The notes beneath the pieces are model-generated. The model searched no databases. It was not told the origin of the DNA and saw only the letters and a list, made by a program, of their open reading frames with translations. The translations under genes were made by a program, and so were the position numbers. 64,000 nt of DNA from Octopus sinensis (lineage: Eukaryota), in contig NC_043001.1 in NCBI RefSeq assembly GCF_006345805.1, forward strand, positions 14,942,001-15,006,000, read 5' to 3'. Positions 4,580-57,727 of this stretch are shown one piece after another (the first letter of the stretch is position 1; each line of letters starts with the position of its first letter).

Positions 4580-4995
4580 GTAGGCGCAGGAATGGCTGTA
4601 TGGTAAGTAGCTTGCTTACCAACCACATGGTTCCGGGTTCAGTCCCACTGCATGGCACCTTAGGCAAGTGTCTTCTACTATAGCCTCGGGCCAACCAAAG
4701 CCTTGTGAGTGGATTTGGTAGATGGAAACTGAAAGAAGCCCGTCGTATATATGTATATATATATATAAGCGTGTGTGTGTGTTTGTGTGTCTGTGTTTGC
4801 CCCCCTACCATTGCTTGACAACCGATGCTGGTGTGTTTATGTTCCTGTTACTTAGCGGTTCGGCAAAAGAGACCGATAGAATAAGTACTGGGCTTACAAA
4901 AGAATAAGTCCCGGGGTCGAGTTGCTTGATTAAAGGCGGTGCTCCAGCATGGCCGCAGTCAAATGACTGAAACAAGTAAAAGAGTAAAAGAGTAA
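4382..4995 (+). mobile_element. SINE family A with tandemly duplicated 5' half
   Basis: Head+CORE at 4382 and again at 4583, single 3' half. Confidence 0.88.
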
Positions 4996-6409: not shown

Positions 6410-6482
6410 AGGTTCCAGTGAGTTTCGAACTCACGACCTTCTGTGTGTTAAGCAGATGTGATAACCACTACGCCATGGAACC
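6410..6482 (-). tRNA. tRNA-Val(AAC) gene or pseudogene
   Basis: GGTTCCA TG GCG TAGTGGTTAT CAC A TCTGC TTAACAC ACAGA AGGTC GTGAG TTCGAAA CTCAC TGGAACC T; perfect acceptor and T stems, C.A mismatches in D and anticodon stems. Confidence 0.85.
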
Positions 6483-8369: not shown

Positions 8370-8790
8370 TCTTTTTACTCTTTTACTTGTTTCATTATTT
8401 GACTGTGGCCACGATGGAGCACCGCCTTTAATCGAGCAAATCGACCCCAGGACTTATTCTTTGTAAGCCTAGTACTTATTCTATCGGTCTCTTTTGCTGA
8501 ACTGCTAAGTTACGGGGATGTAAATACACCAGCATCGGTTGTCAAGTGATGTTGGGGGGACAAACACAGACACACAAACATATACACACACACATACATA
8601 CATACATATATATATACACACATATATACGATGGGCTTCTTTCAGTTTCTGTCTACCAAATCCACTCACAAGGCTTTGGTCGGCCCGAGGCTATAGTAAA
8701 AGACACTTGCCCAAGGTGCCACGCAGTGGGAATGAACTTAGAACCATGTGGTTGGTAAGTAAGCTACTTACCACACAGCCACTCCTGTGG
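8370..8790 (-). mobile_element. SINE family A
   Basis: Reverse complement match to family A. Confidence 0.9.
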
Positions 8791-9458
8791 CTATTTGGTC
8801 ACAAATCTTGCAAATTAAAATAAACAAACTTTGAATTTCTAATACATTGTTTAATCAGCATCACAGATTATGGTTTATCTTGGTTTGTTTCCCAGAATTC
8901 CACAGAATGGTCTCCTGGCTTCTTCATAATGCTTAACCTGAAACTTTCCCCTCCCCTACCAGTTTTCTCATTAGTTTCCTCACCTCATCATTTGCGTCTC
9001 CAATGAGATTGAGAACATCTTTTTTGAAATGATTGATCGATTTCTTAGAGTGCATCATAGAATCTACCTACCTCATCTTCATTCATATCAATTTATTGGA
9101 GCATAAAATTCTATATTTGGCTGTAACAGTGGATTGTTTTCCTCTGCATCCGGTTTTTATAACTCAATCATAAACTGATTTACATCAAAACAAGGACTTG
9201 GTGACAGTTCTGTTTGAGAAAGCTCCAACACCGTGGCTATAATTAATATTGCTTCCTGAGAAAATTACCATTTTATTATGGTTGTTAAACAGCCATTTCC
9301 TGTCTGTTTTGTTTCTGAAAACCCAAGAGAAGATATCCACGTCCGTCCTTCCATTACATATTAACCAAAGTTTAACAATTAGACATAAACCCCATTTATT
9401 TCATGTGGCAACTTTCATCTATCTAAAGTACTGAAATTTTGATCAACAGAATCAAGAT

Positions 9459-14809: not shown

Positions 14810-15332
14810 CAGGCGTGGTTGTTGGGTCTGAAGCTTGCTCTCCAACCATGTTGTTCTGGGTTTGATCCTGCTGTGTGACACCTTGGGCGGGTATCTTCTA
14901 CTATAGCCTCAGGCCTACCTAGGCCTTGTGGGTGGAGTTGGTAGATGGAGGCTGAGGGAGGCCTGTCGTGTATATGTATGTATATATCTAGCACATGGTT
15001 CAGTGGTTAGAGCATCGGGGGGGCGGTCACTATCATGGGGTAGTGAGTTTGATTCTCAGACCAGGCTCTGTGATGTGGTCTTGAGCAAGACACTTTATTT
15101 CACATTGCTCCAGTTCACTCAGCTGTAGAAATGAGTTGCGACGTCACTGGTGCCATTAATAATCATAGGCGCAGGAGTGGCTGTGGTAAGTAGCTTGCTT
15201 ACCAACCACATGGCTCTGGATTCAGTCCCACTGCGTGGCACCTTGGGCAAGTGTCTTCTACTATAGCCTCGGACCAACCAAAGCCTTGTGAGTGGATTTG
15301 GTAGACAGAAACTGAAAGAAGCCTGTTGTATG

Positions 15333-15372
<40 letters not shown>

Positions 15373-15585
15373 CATTTGTGTGTCTGTGTTTGTCCCTCCA
15401 ACATCGCTTGACAACCGATGCTGGTGTGTTTACGTCCCCGTAGCTTAGTGGTTCGGCAAAAGAGACCGATAGAATAAGTACTAGGCTTACAAAGAATAAG
15501 TCCTGGGGTCGATTTCTTCAACTGAAAGGTGGTGCTCCAGCATGGCTGCAGTCAAATGACTGAAACAAGTAAAAGAGTAAAAGAG
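14810..15585 (+). mobile_element. SINE stack: partial family A, family E (~14990-15150), full family A (15168-15585)
   Basis: Successive tRNA-like heads and CORE-like motifs. Confidence 0.8.
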
Positions 15586-19565: not shown

Positions 19566-20225
19566 TGCAGTTACTGTTCCTAATACAATAAAATAGCTTT
19601 TTGATTTGCATGCTTATTTTCACTAGTTTATGACAACCCATCAAAGGTGATGACAACGTTGACCTAAGACGGCTATCCTTCTCCGCCTCCAGCATATAGT
19701 TTCTTATGGGAGCGGACGTGGTTGACAAGACCGACACGAGATAGGCATATCTTGTGGCACTAAGGGCACTGAAAGTGACTCCAAACAACAGCTGCAGGGC
19801 ATTGATGTCTCGCCATCTCTTTATCTAATCCCCCATGTTTGTTTTCAAAGCATTCTACTACAAGTGGAAGAGTGCTTTGGTTTGCATAAAAAAAAAAAAG
19901 GGATCATCACAAAGCATGCTTTTAAGCATGTATGGAGGAAAGGAAAGATGTCGAATTGCAGCTCTGGGGAGTATGATTTGCGTATATGACAGTTAAAATG
20001 AAAGTGCGGTTTATTGGATGAAGGACACAAGGTTCCATTAGATAGATTCTGAGAAGGGCTGAATTATGAAATATTTTTGACCCCCCCCCCCCACACACAC
20101 TCTATGGAACATTGAGGAAATTCTGTGGAAAATTCAAAGAAGTTGAACCAAATAAATAGAAACAAAATTTGATTCAAATTTTTTATGATTTCCATAACTT
20201 AACAAAAAAAATGTTTTCAACCGTA

Positions 20226-20660
20226 GGCATAGGAGTGGCTGTGTGGTAAGTAGCTTGCTTATGAACCACATGGTTCTGGGTTCAGTCCCACTGCGTAGTG
20301 GACTGGGCAACTGTCTTCTACTATAGCCTCAGGCCGACCAAAGCCTTGTGAGTGGATTTGGTAGACAGAAACTAAATGAAGCCTGTTGCAGATATGTATA
20401 TATATATGTATATATGTGTGGTGTGTGTGTGTGTGTGTGTGTGTATGTTTATGTGTCTGTGTTTGTTCCCCCAACATCGCTTGAAAACCAATGCTGGCGT
20501 GTTTACGTCCCCGTAACTTAGCGGTTTGGCAAAAGAGACCGATAGAATAAGTACTAGGCTTACAAAGAATAAGTCCTGGGGTCGATTTGCTCGACTAAAA
20601 GGCAGTGCTCCAGCATGGCCACAGTCAAATGACCGAAACAATTAAAATAGTAAAGAGTAA
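20226..20660 (+). mobile_element. SINE family A
   Basis: Match to family A. Confidence 0.9.
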
Positions 20661-34720: not shown

Positions 34721-35463
34721 GTACATTAATAATAAATCAGGCAATCGGCAAATTGGGTTGGTTAGTGGTTACCTACGAACATACAACACGTATTTGGTGT
34801 CATGTGACTTCCGCTTGATTGGTCAAATGGAGGACAGCAATTAATATAGAGATGAGGTGAAGATGTAGGTAAAGCAGTGAGCACCTGGATTCTTTTCAAA
34901 GAGGATTTGTGAATTTGGTTCAATGATATTACGTCATCCTTGAGACAGACTATATTGAGTCGTAGCTACTATCATATACATTTGGAAAATCCTGTAGGGG
35001 TATGTTTCAAACTTTGGCATTAGAATTTTAATGCGTGAACTGGTAGATACTGTCATTTTCCAAATATAATTTTCAAAATCATGAAAAAAAACAAAAACAC
35101 TCTGTTGTACCTGTTTTAATATTTGGAGGTCCTCATGTGTTTAACTGCCTCTCTAAAGATATCAGAAATGTAAAAGGATCCTCTGCTGAAAAATTAAAAG
35201 ATGAAAATTGGCTACACTCTTAATAACGATGCTGGACCAGCTGACCATTCAAGGATACACTCGGGTAAAATCAGCCATAAACCGACAACACAAATGATAG
35301 AAAATAAATTAAGGTGGTGCTCCAGTATGGCTGCAGTCCTACGAATGAAACCATTAAAAGAATAAAAGAAAAGAAAGTTCCTCTACCAATGTGCAATTTG
35401 AATGACCAACATCAGTTAATAAAACAGTTATGTCCACATTTTCATTACCTTCGACAGCATAAT

Positions 35464-35644
35464 AGGCGCAGGAGTGGCTGTGTGGTAAGTAGCTTGCTAA
35501 CCAACCACATGGTTCCGGGTTCAGTCCCACTGCGTGGCATCTTGGGCAAGTGTCTTCTGCTATAGCCCCAGGCTGACCAATGCTTTGTGAGTGGATTTGA
35601 TAGACGGAAACTGAAAGAAGCCTGTCGTATATATGTATATATAT

Positions 35645-35676
<32 letters not shown>

Positions 35677-35880
35677 CTGTGTTTGTCCCCCTAGCATTGC
35701 TTGACAACCGATGCTGGTGTGTTTACGTCCCCGTCACTTACCGGTTCAGCAAAAAGAGACTGATAGAATAAGTACTGGGCTTACAAAGAATAAGTCCCGG
35801 GGTTGATTTGCGCGACTAAAGGTGGTGCTCCAGCATGGCCGCAGTCAAATGACTGAAACAAGTAAAAGAGTAAAAGAGTA
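35464..35880 (+). mobile_element. SINE family A
   Basis: Match to family A. Confidence 0.9.
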
Positions 35881-39140: not shown

Positions 39141-39769
39141 CCCTTCAGTATTCCGATTACCAGATTACTCTGTCAAATGTAAAGCTAATTTATAGGTTCA
39201 GGAGTGGCTATGTGGTAAGTAGCTTGCTTACCAACCACATGGACATGGATTCAGTCCCACTGTGTGGCACCTTGGACCAGTGTCTTCTACTATAGCTTCG
39301 GGCCGACCAAAGCCTTGTGAGTGGATTTGGTAAACAGAAACTGGAAGAAGCCCATTGTATATGTGTGTGTGTGTGTGTATCATTGTGTGTCTGTGTTTGT
39401 CCCCTCAACATCGCTTGACAACTGATGCTGGTGTGTTTATGTCCCTGTAACTTAGCGGTTCGGTAAAAGAGACCGATAGAATAAGTACTAGGCTTACAAA
39501 GAATAAGTCCTGGGGTCGATTTGCTCGACCAGAGGTGGTGCTCCAGCATGGCCACAGTCAAATGACTGAAACAAGTAAAAGAATAAAAGAATAAATACAT
39601 TGTTATGAATTTATCATGCATTATCTTGTAGCTCTGAGATTGTGATGACGTGATAGTTTATTTTTGGAATGGCATTGTATGATAGGTGTGAGAGGCCAGT
39701 TCTGGCTGGTTTCAACATAAAGCCAGTAGAATATTTGCACCAGATATGACTGGTTTAAATGCTAAAGGA
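39141..39769 (-). mobile_element. piggyBac-like MITE interrupted by SINE A (39194-39595)
   Basis: TTAA|CCCTT...AAAGGA|TTAA; homologous to 13874-14094. Confidence 0.75.
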
Positions 39770-52034: not shown

Positions 52035-52576
52035 TTACTTGGATAATCCCAGGTGTTTAAAACGTTTCATCCCCCTATGGATGCTAAGAAACTCTAGGGA
52101 GTACTGAACAGCAGAAGGTCTTCCGAAAAGAAACTGCCTTCATGCAACTATGTCAGTCCTTAACTCCTTACATTTTTAAAGAGTCCTAGCTGTACCTAGG
52201 TCATGACACCTAGAAACCCCTCTATTTCCACATTCTTTGCTATTGCCTACATAAGTGGTTCTCAACCATTTTTTTTTTTTTTGTTTATGAACCCTTTGCT
52301 TACTGTTTTATAGCCATTTGATGTTTAAAAACTAGTTTTATAGAAATGTCTTTCAAAATTCCTATTTTTTGTTTTTCACACATTATCTTGTGTAGGTTGA
52401 TCTATGTAAAACATTAGAGAAAAAACCGAATGGTTTCTAGTATTGTTAAATGTATTTTCTATGAATGGATTGCAAGAAATGGAGGTGAAAGATTTGCTGA
52501 TGCTGCTTGTGGTTAGAATGGTACATGTGGGCGGTTTTGGTTCCTGAAGCCATTGTATGTTCTGTGTTAAGTTATT

Positions 52577-52772
52577 TTACTCTTTTACTTGTTTCAGTCA
52601 TTTGACTGTGGCCATTCTGGAGTACCGCCTTTAGTCGAGCAAATCGACCCCAAGACTTATTCTTTGTAAGCCTAGTACTTATTCTATCGGTCCCTTTTAC
52701 CAAACCACTAAGTTATGGGGACGTAAACACACCAGAATCAGTTGTCAAGTGATGTTGGGGGGGCAAACACAA

Positions 52773-52809
<37 letters not shown>

Positions 52810-52822
52810 CATATATATATAT
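52577..52822 (-). mobile_element. 3' half of SINE family A
   Basis: Tail through (AC)n(AT)n. Confidence 0.85.
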
Positions 52823-53030
52823 TATGTGAAATAGAAAGATGAATAATCTTGTTGCAGATTAATCAAAAGTTTAATCGATACCTTGGTAACAAAAATCACA
52901 GCAGAAGACAGCACGGTTGGAGGTACAACCATATGGTGTTGCAACCGTGCGTTGGTGCGGATAATTGAATTTTAATATTATTAGTGAATTTAAGAAATGG
53001 AGTTGAACGAAGATTGAACAGAAATCGTTT

Positions 53031-53123
53031 TATTTCATTCTACACGTGTTTCGAAAGGCACAATTTACCAAATTCCGATTGAATAATGAGACCATATTGT
53101 GCCTTTCTCTTCAGGAAGAAATA
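53031..53123 (-). ncRNA. Type I hammerhead ribozyme
   Basis: TATTTCTTC-CTGAAGA-GAAAGGCACAAT-(31 nt)-ATTGTGCCTTTC-GAAAC-ACGT-GTA-GAATGAAATA; intact core, 12-bp stem II, palindromic stem III, GUA triplet. Confidence 0.85.
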
Positions 53124-54138
53124 GGAAATCCGTTGGAAAAAACAAAAACAGAACAGAGGCGGAGCAAAACAAATCGAACTAGGCTCCTAAGAGCCCATGG
53201 CCAAACTGTTTATCAGTGTATGTTGAAAACTGGTGGTGGGGGCGTTGAAGATTTTAACGGGTCAGGCAACGGTCATTCCGGTGGGTGAGGGTACGGGGTG
53301 TGTAGATGTTCTTTGTGACCGAGAGTAAAGTTCTGACTATTTAAAGAATATTAGATGTATTATATGGGGCGAGAGAAATCTACTAAGAGACATGTGTGTG
53401 TTTACTGTTCTATATATGTGTGCGGGTGCGAGTTGATAAGCAGCGCTACATTCTGGTCAGTGCTGAGAAATCCGTCAAGGGGTAGAAAACATTTTGTGTG
53501 TGCGTTTGATCGCGCGGCTGTCAGTTGGTAAACAGCTCTACCCAATGGTCAATGCTGTAGAATCCGTTGGGCGGCAGAAAAAAAATATTTTATGTGTGCG
53601 TGTGTTCGTCACAGACGAACACATGCACACGCACAGCATTGACCATTGGGTAGAGCTGTTTACCAACTGACAGCCGCGCGATCAAACGCACACACGTACA
53701 CATAAAATGTTTTCTACCCCTTGACAGATTTCTCAGCACTGACCAGAATGTAGCGCTGCTTATCAACTCGCGCCCGCACACATATATAGAACAGTAAACA
53801 CACACATGTCTCTTAGTAGATTTCTCTCGCCCCATATAATACATCTAATATTCTTTAAATAGTCAGAACTTTACTCTCGGTCACAAAGAACATCTACACA
53901 CCCCGTACCCTCACCCACCGGAATGACCGTTGCCTGACCCGTTAAAATCTTCAACGCCCCCACCACCAGTTTTCAACATACACTGATAAACAGTTTGGCC
54001 ATGGGCTCTTAGGAGCCTAGTTCGATTTGTTTTGCTCCGCCTCTGTTCTGTTTTTGTTTTTTCCAACGGATTTCCTATTTCTTCCTGAAGAGAAAGGCAC
54101 AATATGGTCTCATTATTCAATCGGAATTTGGTAAATTG
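53061..54138. mobile_element. ~500-bp-arm inverted repeat, probable Penelope-like element inverted pseudo-LTR pair
   Basis: 53061-53558 is the near-exact reverse complement of 53633-54138; HHR at the outer end. Confidence 0.8.
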
Positions 54139-54419
54139 GTGAAGTTGGTGAAGAATGTTGCCGTTTGGTGTGATTGTTGTCTTTTAGCTCCATGTTAGAG
54201 TCGATGGAACACATTCAAAGGTATTTCAGCCGTGACCTTTGTGTCTTTGGAGAAATCTAGAACCAGATTATTCAGAAACACAAATTTATTGTTTTAGTAT
54301 CTCTTGTTTTGTGAGGATTCAGCGTGGATGATCCACAGATGAAAACATAGAACAATTTAACACCAGGCCCTGTTTTGTAGTTGTTATAAGTTAATTGTAC
54401 TGTTGTCAATGATAAACCA

Positions 54420-54950
54420 GACATGTGTGCCGGTGGCATGTAAAACGCACCATTCGAGCATGATCGTTGCCAATGCTGTCTTCCTGGCTCCAGTGCTGGT
54501 GGCACATAAAAAGCACCATTCAAGCGTGGTCGTTGCCAGTAACATCTGACTGGCTCCCATGCTGGTGACAAGTAAAAAGCACCATTAGAGCATGGTTGTT
54601 GCCAGTGCCACCTGACTGGCTCCTGTGCTAGTGGCACATAAAAAGCACCATTAGAGCATGGTTGTTGCCAGTGCCACCTGACTGGCTCCTGTGCTGGTGG
54701 CACGTAAAAAGCACCATTTGAGCGATGGTCGTTGCCTGTACCACCTGACTGGCTCCTGTGCCTGTAGCATGCAAAAAGCACCCACTACACTCTTGGAGTG
54801 GTTGGCGTTAGGAAGGGCGTCCAGCTGTAGAAACATTGCCAGATCGGATTGGAACCTGGTGCAGCCTACTGGCTCGCCAGTTCTCAGTCAAACCGACCAA
54901 CCCATGCCAGCATGGAAAGCGGATGTTAAACAATGACGATGTTGATGATG
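54420..54950 (+). mobile_element. SINE family D with ~66-bp internal tandem units
   Basis: Repeated GGTGGCAC(G/A)TAAAAAGCACCATT; Meta motif. Confidence 0.8.
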
Positions 54951-56089: not shown

Positions 56090-56345
56090 AAGCTGCAGTG
56101 ACCCTGACACTGTGACTTCTAGTAATGTTGGCCAGAATCAACAAGCTGTACTAATGAGCATCGAAGCTAAGATAATCCGGCAGACTTTCGGTATATCCAT
56201 AGAACTGTAAGTTATTTTGTGAATCCTGTCACTGATATATACACCAATAATGCTGAAGATTTCTGGGCAGGTATACGCAGTGACCGATCAATTATAAAAC
56301 AGAATCAACCACCATCATAAAGTGGTTGCATGTGGGTGAGGCATG
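56090..56345 (+). pseudogene. Merlin/IS1595-like transposase fragment
   Basis: 56198-56281 translates HRTVSYFVNPVTDIYTNNAEDFWAGIRS, resembling the HxTVNHSxxFVDPxTGxHTNxIExxW motif. Confidence 0.6.
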
Positions 56346-56349
56346 GAAT

Positions 56350-56968
56350 CGTCATTATCATCGTTATCATCATCAATGTAGTCATTGTCACCTTCGTCAT
56401 CGTTGTCATCATCGTCATCATCTTTGTCATTATCGTCATCATCGTCATCACCGTCTTCGTCAGCATCGTCTTCGTCAGCATCGTCTTCGTCATCACCGTC
56501 TTCGTCATCATCGTCTTTGTCATCACCATCTTCGTCATCATCATCTTCGTCATCGTTCTTGTCGTCGTCGTCATCATTGTCTTCATCATCCTCCTCATCG
56601 TCTTCATCATCGTCGTCATCATTGTCTTTGTCATCATCGTCTTCGTCATCACCGTCTTTGTCATCATCGTCTTCGTCATCACCGTCTTCGTCATCATCGT
56701 CATCATCATCTTCATCATCGTTCTTGTCGTCGTCGTCATCATTGTCTTCATCATCCTCCTCATCGTCTTCATCGTCGTCATCATCATTGTCTTCGTCATC
56801 ACCGTCTTCGTCATCATCATCTTTGTCATCGTTCTTGTTGTCATCGTCGTCATCATTGTCTTCATCATCCTCCTCATTGTCTTCATCATCGTCGTCATCA
56901 TTGTCTTTGTCATCATCATCTTCGTCATCATCGTTGTCGTCTTTGTCATGTTCGTCTTCGTCGTCGTC
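56350..56968. repeat. Compound (TCA/TCG/TCT)n trinucleotide array with higher-order blocks
   Basis: Visible; open in several frames because of repeat structure. Confidence 0.92.
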
Positions 56969-57727
56969 AGTGGTATTTTGTCTAACTTTATGTTCTGAGT
57001 TCAAATTCCGCCGAGGTCGACTTTGCCTTTCATCCTTTTGTGGTTGATAAATTAAGTACCAGTTGTGTACTGAGGTCGATCTAATTGACCTGCCCCTCTT
57101 CCCCAAAAATTTTGGGCCTTGTGTCTAGAGTACAAAAACATATTTCTCTTGATATGCTGTACCTTTGTTTCAATTAATTTTGGAAATAACGAAGAATTTA
57201 AGTAAGGCAATTCAATCCTTACCAAATTTGTGTTTGGAACATAAATGAACTTTAGCTGGAAGGTTTAAATTTAGATCACTTTGAAACAGGAAGTTTTTTA
57301 TCATAAAACCAGGTGCAGTCTTAGATGAATTGGTATCGAAAGGGTCAGATTGGTGTTACTGTGTTCCCTCTATTTCTGTATGTCCCCTTAATACTTTCTA
57401 CGTTATATATGATTGATTGAGGAACTCCAATGAGACCTACACATGTCCACTGCTTTCGCAAGCTGTCTTTAAAAACCAGATCCACTCAAGCTTGCTACTT
57501 TATTTTAAGAATTATACCTATTTCTTTACTACCCACAAGGGGCTACACAGAGAGGACAAACAAGGACAGACAAACGGATTAAGTCAATTATATCGACCCC
57601 AGTGCGTAACTGGTACTTAATTTATCGATGTCGAAAAGATGAAACGCAAAGTCGACCTCGGCGGAATTTGAACTCAGAATGGAGCGACAGACGAAATACT
57701 GCTAAGTATTTTGGCCAGCGTGCTAAA
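56969..57727. mobile_element. SINE family B copies (+ 56969-57140; - 57517-57727)
   Basis: Nin motif. Confidence 0.82.

Follow-up and report, generated by a model that had tools for sequence, protein, structure and literature searches.

An inverted pseudo-LTR palindrome in Octopus sinensis as the probable fold-back copy of a Hydra-like Penelope-like element

The palindrome examined here lies within a window of 64,000 nucleotides of Octopus sinensis DNA (the whole stretch analysed) and is most probably an ORF-less, 5'-truncated copy of the 3' pseudo-LTR (pLTR) of a high-copy Penelope-like element (PLE), standing head-to-head with an inverted version of itself. It is likely to have arisen from a (TA)n-primed cDNA that stopped after about 790 nt and folded back, and to have been clipped by deletion later, a reading to which a probability of roughly 0.88 is assigned. 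Seen directly are the family membership, the partner ORFs, the (TA)n target, the two 3' end points of the family, an apex of 3 nt, the changes specific to each arm and a second allele at the right junction; the priming and fold-back steps and the timing of the deletions are inferred. An earlier note, made from the DNA letters alone, had proposed that a Penelope-like element inserted here recently, lacking an ORF and with pieces of its pLTR in inverted orientation, and the copies, partner ORFs and head-to-head loci described below support that proposal. The locus itself is ordinary PLE debris. Its features, in window coordinates, are as follows.

52572..52792, plus strand: 5' half of a host repeat of about 430 bp (putatively SINE-like) and the start of its central (CA)n tract
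52793..52819, no strand: (TA)n target tract adjoining the 3' end of the element
52820..53610, minus strand: 5'-truncated direct copy of the 3' pLTR of the PLE family, tail included, with no ORF
52820..52974, minus strand: optional tail of about 155 nt between the two 3' end points of the family
53031..53123, minus strand: type I hammerhead, predicted to need a dimer
53611..53613, no strand: fold-back apex of 3 nt
53614..54138, plus strand: inverted arm, with a net loss of about 33 bp near 53631, cut within stem II of its ribozyme
54137..54138, plus strand: right junction with 2-bp microhomology to the flank, a putative deletion breakpoint
54139..54425, plus strand: right flank, single-copy (one match, itself)

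Alignment of the two arms (53061-53558 against 53633-54138) covers 498 columns and agrees with the near-identity that had been noticed, with two substitutions (53473/53726 and 53427/53772) and one 8-bp indel. The right arm does stop within stem II, as had been described, its end falling in the 3' strand of that stem. Two other parts of the first description require revision. The left arm, said to end at the hammerhead, continues as family sequence for about 210 bp beyond the ribozyme to about 52820, where (TA)n follows, and the supposed 74-bp spacer is not unique DNA, being made up of family sequence (53559-53610), the 3-nt apex and the deletion in the right arm. The inverted arm starts, at 53614, with the same element base as the left copy, and its loss of about 33 bp net sits just inside the apex. 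Fourteen derived states are common to both arms, four of them present in none of 28 other copies. Five differences separate the arms, and each arm has derived changes of its own: the 8-bp loss and 53427 on the left, and 53726, 53624 and the loss of about 33 bp on the right. These shared and arm-specific changes fit one template followed by a short spell of separate change; two RNAs of one source, or gene conversion between the arms, would also yield the shared changes. The remainder of the right arm was not found elsewhere within the 64-kb window. The pLTR also contains an internal tandem duplication of about 90-100 bp (window 53523-53609 against 53680-53768), 72-90% alike and variable among subfamilies.

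The family to which this copy belongs is abundant. The left arm gave 2,028 first-look candidates in the 2.72-Gb genome, and among the 40 of these that were scored, full-length matches other than the window copy itself are 92-95% identical. Exact matches to a 28-nt piece of the ribozyme number at least 3,152 in the genome, against none for its reversed control. The closest relatives of the window copy among those sampled are L002 and L003, which show identical match statistics on two small contigs and are probably an assembly duplicate. In other copies an ORF stands upstream of the pLTR and the sequence is continuous with it. The autonomous RT/GIY-YIG partner for which the earlier note advised a search was found elsewhere in the genome: a partner protein search gave 3,996 candidates, of which 150 were scored and 20 loci fetched, and six of these loci (L041-L045 and L049) carry uninterrupted frames of 899-908 codons with Met at codon 5. 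Two of them, L042 and L043, are arranged pLTR-ORF-pLTR, and the natural unit measures about 3.6 kb.

An AlphaFold model of the partner protein, built on a 73-row alignment, reached a pLDDT of 79.6, and its top four Foldseek matches are telomerase RTs (best E 2.5e-9), which points to a telomerase-like RT within a single ORF. The C-terminus has GIY-YIG-type motifs with invariant Y778, G793 and R802 (73-row alignment) and matches by eye the Hydra endonuclease (EN) rows in Fig. S2 of Craig et al.; the endonuclease is thus assigned by motif and homology and not by fold match. Pfam and NCBIfam searches with the partner ORFs and their homologues returned nothing informative, and PDB sequence searches nothing significant. 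The ORF, at about 895 aa compared with about 710 in most homologues, is longer because of two disordered Asn/Ser-rich inserts (residues 488-557 and 633-752 of the modelled L043 ORF), which are much shorter in subfamily L052 (778 aa). Taken together, the family is a PLE of the C-terminal EN+ type, with pLTRs partly in tandem and partly inverted, an optional tail and a hammerhead in the pLTR. A Naiad-like selenoprotein reading was dropped, as the intact ORFs need no TGA read-through and the stops vary among copies.

In this family, inverted copies placed head-to-head are the norm. On the single contig that supplied the first 100 listed matches, such pairs make up 29 of 68 loci, with two tail-to-tail and one same-strand. 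Of the loci fetched for junction analysis (12 duplicate rows and 11 diverged loci having been left out), 26 of 37 have a head-to-head junction, or 25 of 36 when the window locus is excluded. Overlaps of 2-10 nt occur at 15 of these 25 other junctions and filler at the remaining 10, the positions differing at every locus. In L033 (where the arms measure 1.5-2 kb), L034, L007, L010 and L038 the inversions are nested, and the inverted arm shows internal jumps or deletions. The 31-nt filler at the L036 junction closes with a short palindrome that has no loop and is set against the beginning of the direct copy, a pattern that hints at snap-back synthesis.

Of the free 3' ends, the 42 that could be anchored use two positions separated by about 155 nt, 20 of them the short one and 22 the long one; 38 of them pass a strict TA count for the (TA)n target, while the other four have shorter TA runs, 20 further ends that could not be anchored being left out of this count. 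Both end points lie in a TA-rich part of the element, where its sequence grades into the (TA)n target. At many loci both outer ends stand in (TA)n, with either end point used independently, and in tandem copies the tail continues for about 45 nt to the ORF start codon. In the mechanism proposed, the RT/GIY-YIG protein of the family would nick a (TA)n tract, and target-primed reverse transcription would run from the long start point for about 790 nt. The template RNA would have remained uncut at its 3' ribozyme, since copies reach 65 or 220 nt beyond the cut site. The cDNA would then fold back and copy itself into the second arm, which deletions, presumably later, would trim.

The main rival to this mechanism holds that there were two priming events, one per nicked (TA)n strand, whose truncated 5' ends were joined by microhomology. 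It is unlikely, although it can draw on published work with a purified anole PLE, which cuts and extends both strands and for which a dimer is modelled (PMC11167929), on the independent choice of end points at loci with both outer ends in (TA)n, and on the finding that the best match is a locus's own arm in just 12 of the 22 inverted loci. At the window locus, however, the same start base on either side of a 3-nt loop, together with the four private changes, would be rare from independent truncations, and in all 21 loci with an own-arm match the own-arm identity is higher than the median found with other loci. These comparisons give a weaker picture of a one-template origin for the family at large than at the window locus.

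The surroundings of the palindrome bear on its later history. The element is placed in the central microsatellite of the host repeat of about 430 bp, which here is without its 3' half of about 170 bp; both halves are present in eight other window copies aligned. Counted by its 3' end motif, this repeat, which consists of two parts on either side of a (CA)n/(TA)n tract, has about 11 copies in the window (examples are 2013-2448, 4581-4989, 8373-8793, 15166-15582, 20224-20654, 35463-35875 and 39193-39591). Its microsatellite is a PLE landing site, and the repeat also stands beside copies in L024, L028 and L047. The right junction is found with 0 differences in contigs of runs X1, X3 and X7, which come from three studies, one of which may be the assembly's own source. 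In run X5, 21 letters matching the end of the host repeat stand before 54137 instead of the right arm. An alternative allele thus exists at this junction, and as the X5 contig ends inside the repeat, the allele may be either empty or furnished with an undeleted insertion. A contig of run X6 begins at 54137 with 21 non-fitting letters and diverges at the right junction; a contig search of the interval 54142-54340 gave no cover in runs X2 and X6. Because the host-repeat end precedes 54137 in X5, it is likely that a deletion with 2-bp microhomology took the end of the arm together with the (TA)n on the right and about 170 bp of the host repeat. The right flank had been considered as a LINE fragment, which was rejected, the flank being single-copy.

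The minus-strand hammerhead is complete, its helices and predicted cut (53041/53040) being as first described. The core occupies 53114-53108, followed by a 12-bp stem II (53107-53096 with 53064-53053) closed by a 31-nt loop 2, GAAA at 53052-53049, a palindromic 8-nt stem III at 53049-53042, GUA and a bulged 9-bp stem I. No hammerhead model of Rfam matched at the locus at gathering and E-value thresholds. The earlier note had considered that the family consensus might lack the ribozyme; it is present in the family. Among 13 selected copies across subfamilies, eight of 23 pairs have changes on both sides, six of them in stem II, and 86.6% of cells are paired compared with 41-54% in slid controls, counts that are inflated by the relatedness of the sequences. 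The long stem II is thus kept across subfamilies, and outer stem I is not. The fully paired 12-bp stem II of the window copy is a derived state, the base concerned being shared with one of 28 other copies, most of which are mismatched there. Other type I hammerheads occur in L039 at 5853 (minus) and 6457 (plus), a head-to-head pair, and in L051 at 635 (plus); with a loop 2 of about 43-52 nt and a different palindromic stem III, they probably belong to other PLE families.

In the folding model, the isolated monomer adopts the active fold with a probability of about 2%, and two copies form a double hammerhead through the 8-bp stem III (-55.3 against 2 x -21.2 kcal/mol). The ribozyme is therefore predicted to cut only as a dimer, which pLTR-ORF-pLTR copies could place on one RNA and the window locus could not. 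A read-through RNA of the locus would fold into a hairpin of about 500 bp that absorbs the 5' half of the ribozyme, with about 89 kcal/mol needed to refold. It is consequently unlikely that transcription would yield dsRNA together with a self-cleaving end, as had been suggested, because the ribozyme would need a dimer and would be trapped in the hairpin; at this locus the ribozyme is probably passenger sequence. In a search for expression, no RNA data set was listed as containing the locus, which speaks neither for nor against transcription. A hairpin RNA with a self-cleaving end that serves the host is a very improbable explanation of the locus. The duplex of about 500 bp predicted for the read-through RNA would suit it, but that duplex sequesters the ribozyme core in the model, the junction is missing from the allele of at least one other individual, hundreds of similar loci are expected from the one-contig sample, and the window's long open frames consist of simple or tandem repeats. 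The window also contains a 66-bp tandem repeat and a trinucleotide-derived array with periods of 15, 9 and 12 bp (54428-54757; 56289-56970), as well as a tRNA match on the minus strand at 6410-6482 (51.3 bits).

Largely refuted is the idea of a separate non-autonomous fold-back or retrozyme-like element that spreads as a palindrome or as circular RNA. The lack of an ORF, the intact ribozyme and the near-perfect arms agree with it, and it has been proposed that animal retrozymes derive from pLTRs (bioRxiv 10.64898/2026.07.22.740005). Nonetheless, the 31-nt apex junction is single-copy in the genome, so that the palindrome is not spreading as a unit, and the varying junction positions and the continuity with an ORF in other copies also count against this idea, as does the finding that the 100 matches listed include just one pair of same-strand neighbours within 10 kb. 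Assemblies are known to go astray at near-perfect palindromes, and no bridging of the apex was seen among the contigs listed, yet an assembly fold-back artefact is scarcely credible given the five differences between the arms, with derived changes in each of them, and a right junction without differences in the contigs of X1, X3 and X7.

With the fold-back origin as the preferred reading, the position of the family among PLEs can be considered. Hydra elements have been defined by RWK and DKT motifs, the absence of CCHH, a CxCX5C linker and CxxC and CxH motifs flanking E and N, as well as by canonical ribozymes, (TA)n targets and a short length below 3 kb (PMC8557442). In the octopus family, DK[TS] occurs in 10 of 11 own ORFs, the exception being N-terminally cut, and DKG in none; the EN is without CCHH, and the CxxC..E and CxH patterns are present in all 11. 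RIRWL stands in place of RWK, and RW[KR] was found in 0 of 11 own ORFs compared with 69 of 110 homologues, a motif that is not strict because the published Hydra-1_Crog has RWR (PMC8557442). Of the 20 own ORFs translated, the 15 in which an EN was located all lack the CxCX5C linker, as opposed to 55 of the 59 homologues with a located EN (of 110), which have it. The unit of about 3.6 kb likewise lies outside the Hydra length. As RWK, the CxCX5C linker and the length below 3 kb are lacking, the family is a Hydra-like variant and is not called a Hydra member. A quick tree of four own and 30 homologue rows, with no outgroup and with the named Hydra sequences not among the rows, joins the family at a support of 100 to an Argonauta protein and to two proteins that bear the linker. 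The presence of the linker in these two proteins suggests that the finger was lost in the family. Neither this family nor a linker-less Hydra lineage is described in the literature searched; Repbase and Dfam lay outside that search, and the family may be catalogued there.

A broader proposal can be put forward tentatively, with the odds somewhat against it. A young Hydra-derived PLE lineage may have swapped its linker zinc finger for a cysteine-free segment and yet insert almost only in (TA)n, targeting being achieved not by the finger but through the nicked (TA)n primer, which would pair with UA-rich sites on the RNA where the RT starts, or by the EN core, while the enlarged and covarying stem II and loop 2 would represent a hammerhead subtype that standard descriptors miss. 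The hypothesis that the finger mediates the microsatellite bias is cited by Craig et al. from Arkhipova 2006, and (TA)n insertion in Hydra has been taken as strengthening the link between linker finger and targeting (PMC8557442). A family that keeps the (TA)n target without a linker finger bears on this hypothesis. The surprise is limited, because Chlamys elements already target microsatellites without a linker finger (PMC8557442). With several intact ORFs and thousands of young junctions, the microsatellite bias and the origin of inverted pLTRs become testable. Should the sampled chromosome be typical, the genome would contain head-to-head arm pairs in the hundreds that could form dsRNA.

The anatomy of inverted-pLTR palindromes has already been published for PLEs (PMC3846280, PMC8557442), and the family can be compared with several known systems. 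Naiad and Chlamys elements, with an N-terminal EN and no canonical hammerhead, are ruled out by the C-terminal EN and complete ribozyme. Retrozymes consist of tandem monomers (bioRxiv 10.64898/2026.07.22.740005), and the window copy, with a single intact ribozyme and no tandem hammerhead monomers, was rejected as a non-LTR retrozyme. Hydra PLEs (Hydra-1_Obim, Hydra-1_Crog and Penelope-13_HM) share with the family a single ORF, DKT and YRDD, a C-terminal GIY-YIG-type domain without CCHH and with a CxxC-E...N-CxH tail, a type I hammerhead in the 3' pLTR with an ACAC/GTGT-type stem III as in Hydra-1_Crog, (TA)n targets, and an inverted 5'-truncated copy, which is listed for Penelope-13_HM (PMC8557442). 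The N-terminal and RT motifs match those of Hydra-1_Obim by eye, whereas the ribozymes differ, and the family is distinct from that element (PMC8557442). Unlike Hydra, the family has a cysteine-free replacement of the CxCX5C linker, RWL for RWK, and a unit of about 3.6 kb instead of less than 3 kb (PMC8557442). Its 12-bp stem II and loop of about 31 nt also contrast with the 3-7 bp and 3-10 nt found in 26 Hydra rows of File S2 (PMC8557442).

Insertions of Penelope, as described by Arkhipova et al. 2013, resemble those of the family in their head-to-head inverted pLTRs and optional tail, in the palindrome at the inverted junction, read there as self-priming, in microhomology junctions, and in N-rich inserts between RT and EN (PMC3846280). 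The tail of about 155 nt is longer than that of Penelope, given as about 31 (PMC3846280) and as 30-40 in Craig et al. (PMC8557442), and the family departs from Penelope in its (TA)n targets with no discernible target-site duplication (PMC3846280). Poseidon PAc of Anolis also has two internal RT start points that define a tail, uncleaved RNA as its main substrate and AT-rich targets (PMC11167929). PAc starts at sites non-homologous to the cut DNA, whereas the end points of the family merge with the (TA)n target, and its ribozyme lies across the ATG, compared with about 265 nt upstream of the ATG in the family (PMC11167929). The dimer-dependent type I hammerheads of metazoan PLEs share the short palindromic helix III, the enlarged helix II and the placement in the pLTR, and opposite-strand hammerhead pairs 100-700 bp apart have been noted in these elements (PMC4209133). 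The family differs from them in a helix II of 12 bp with a large loop, compared with 7-8 bp, and in having no unpaired base between A9 and G10.1, while the dimer predicted here agrees with the behaviour of those dimer-dependent PLE ribozymes (PMC4209133).
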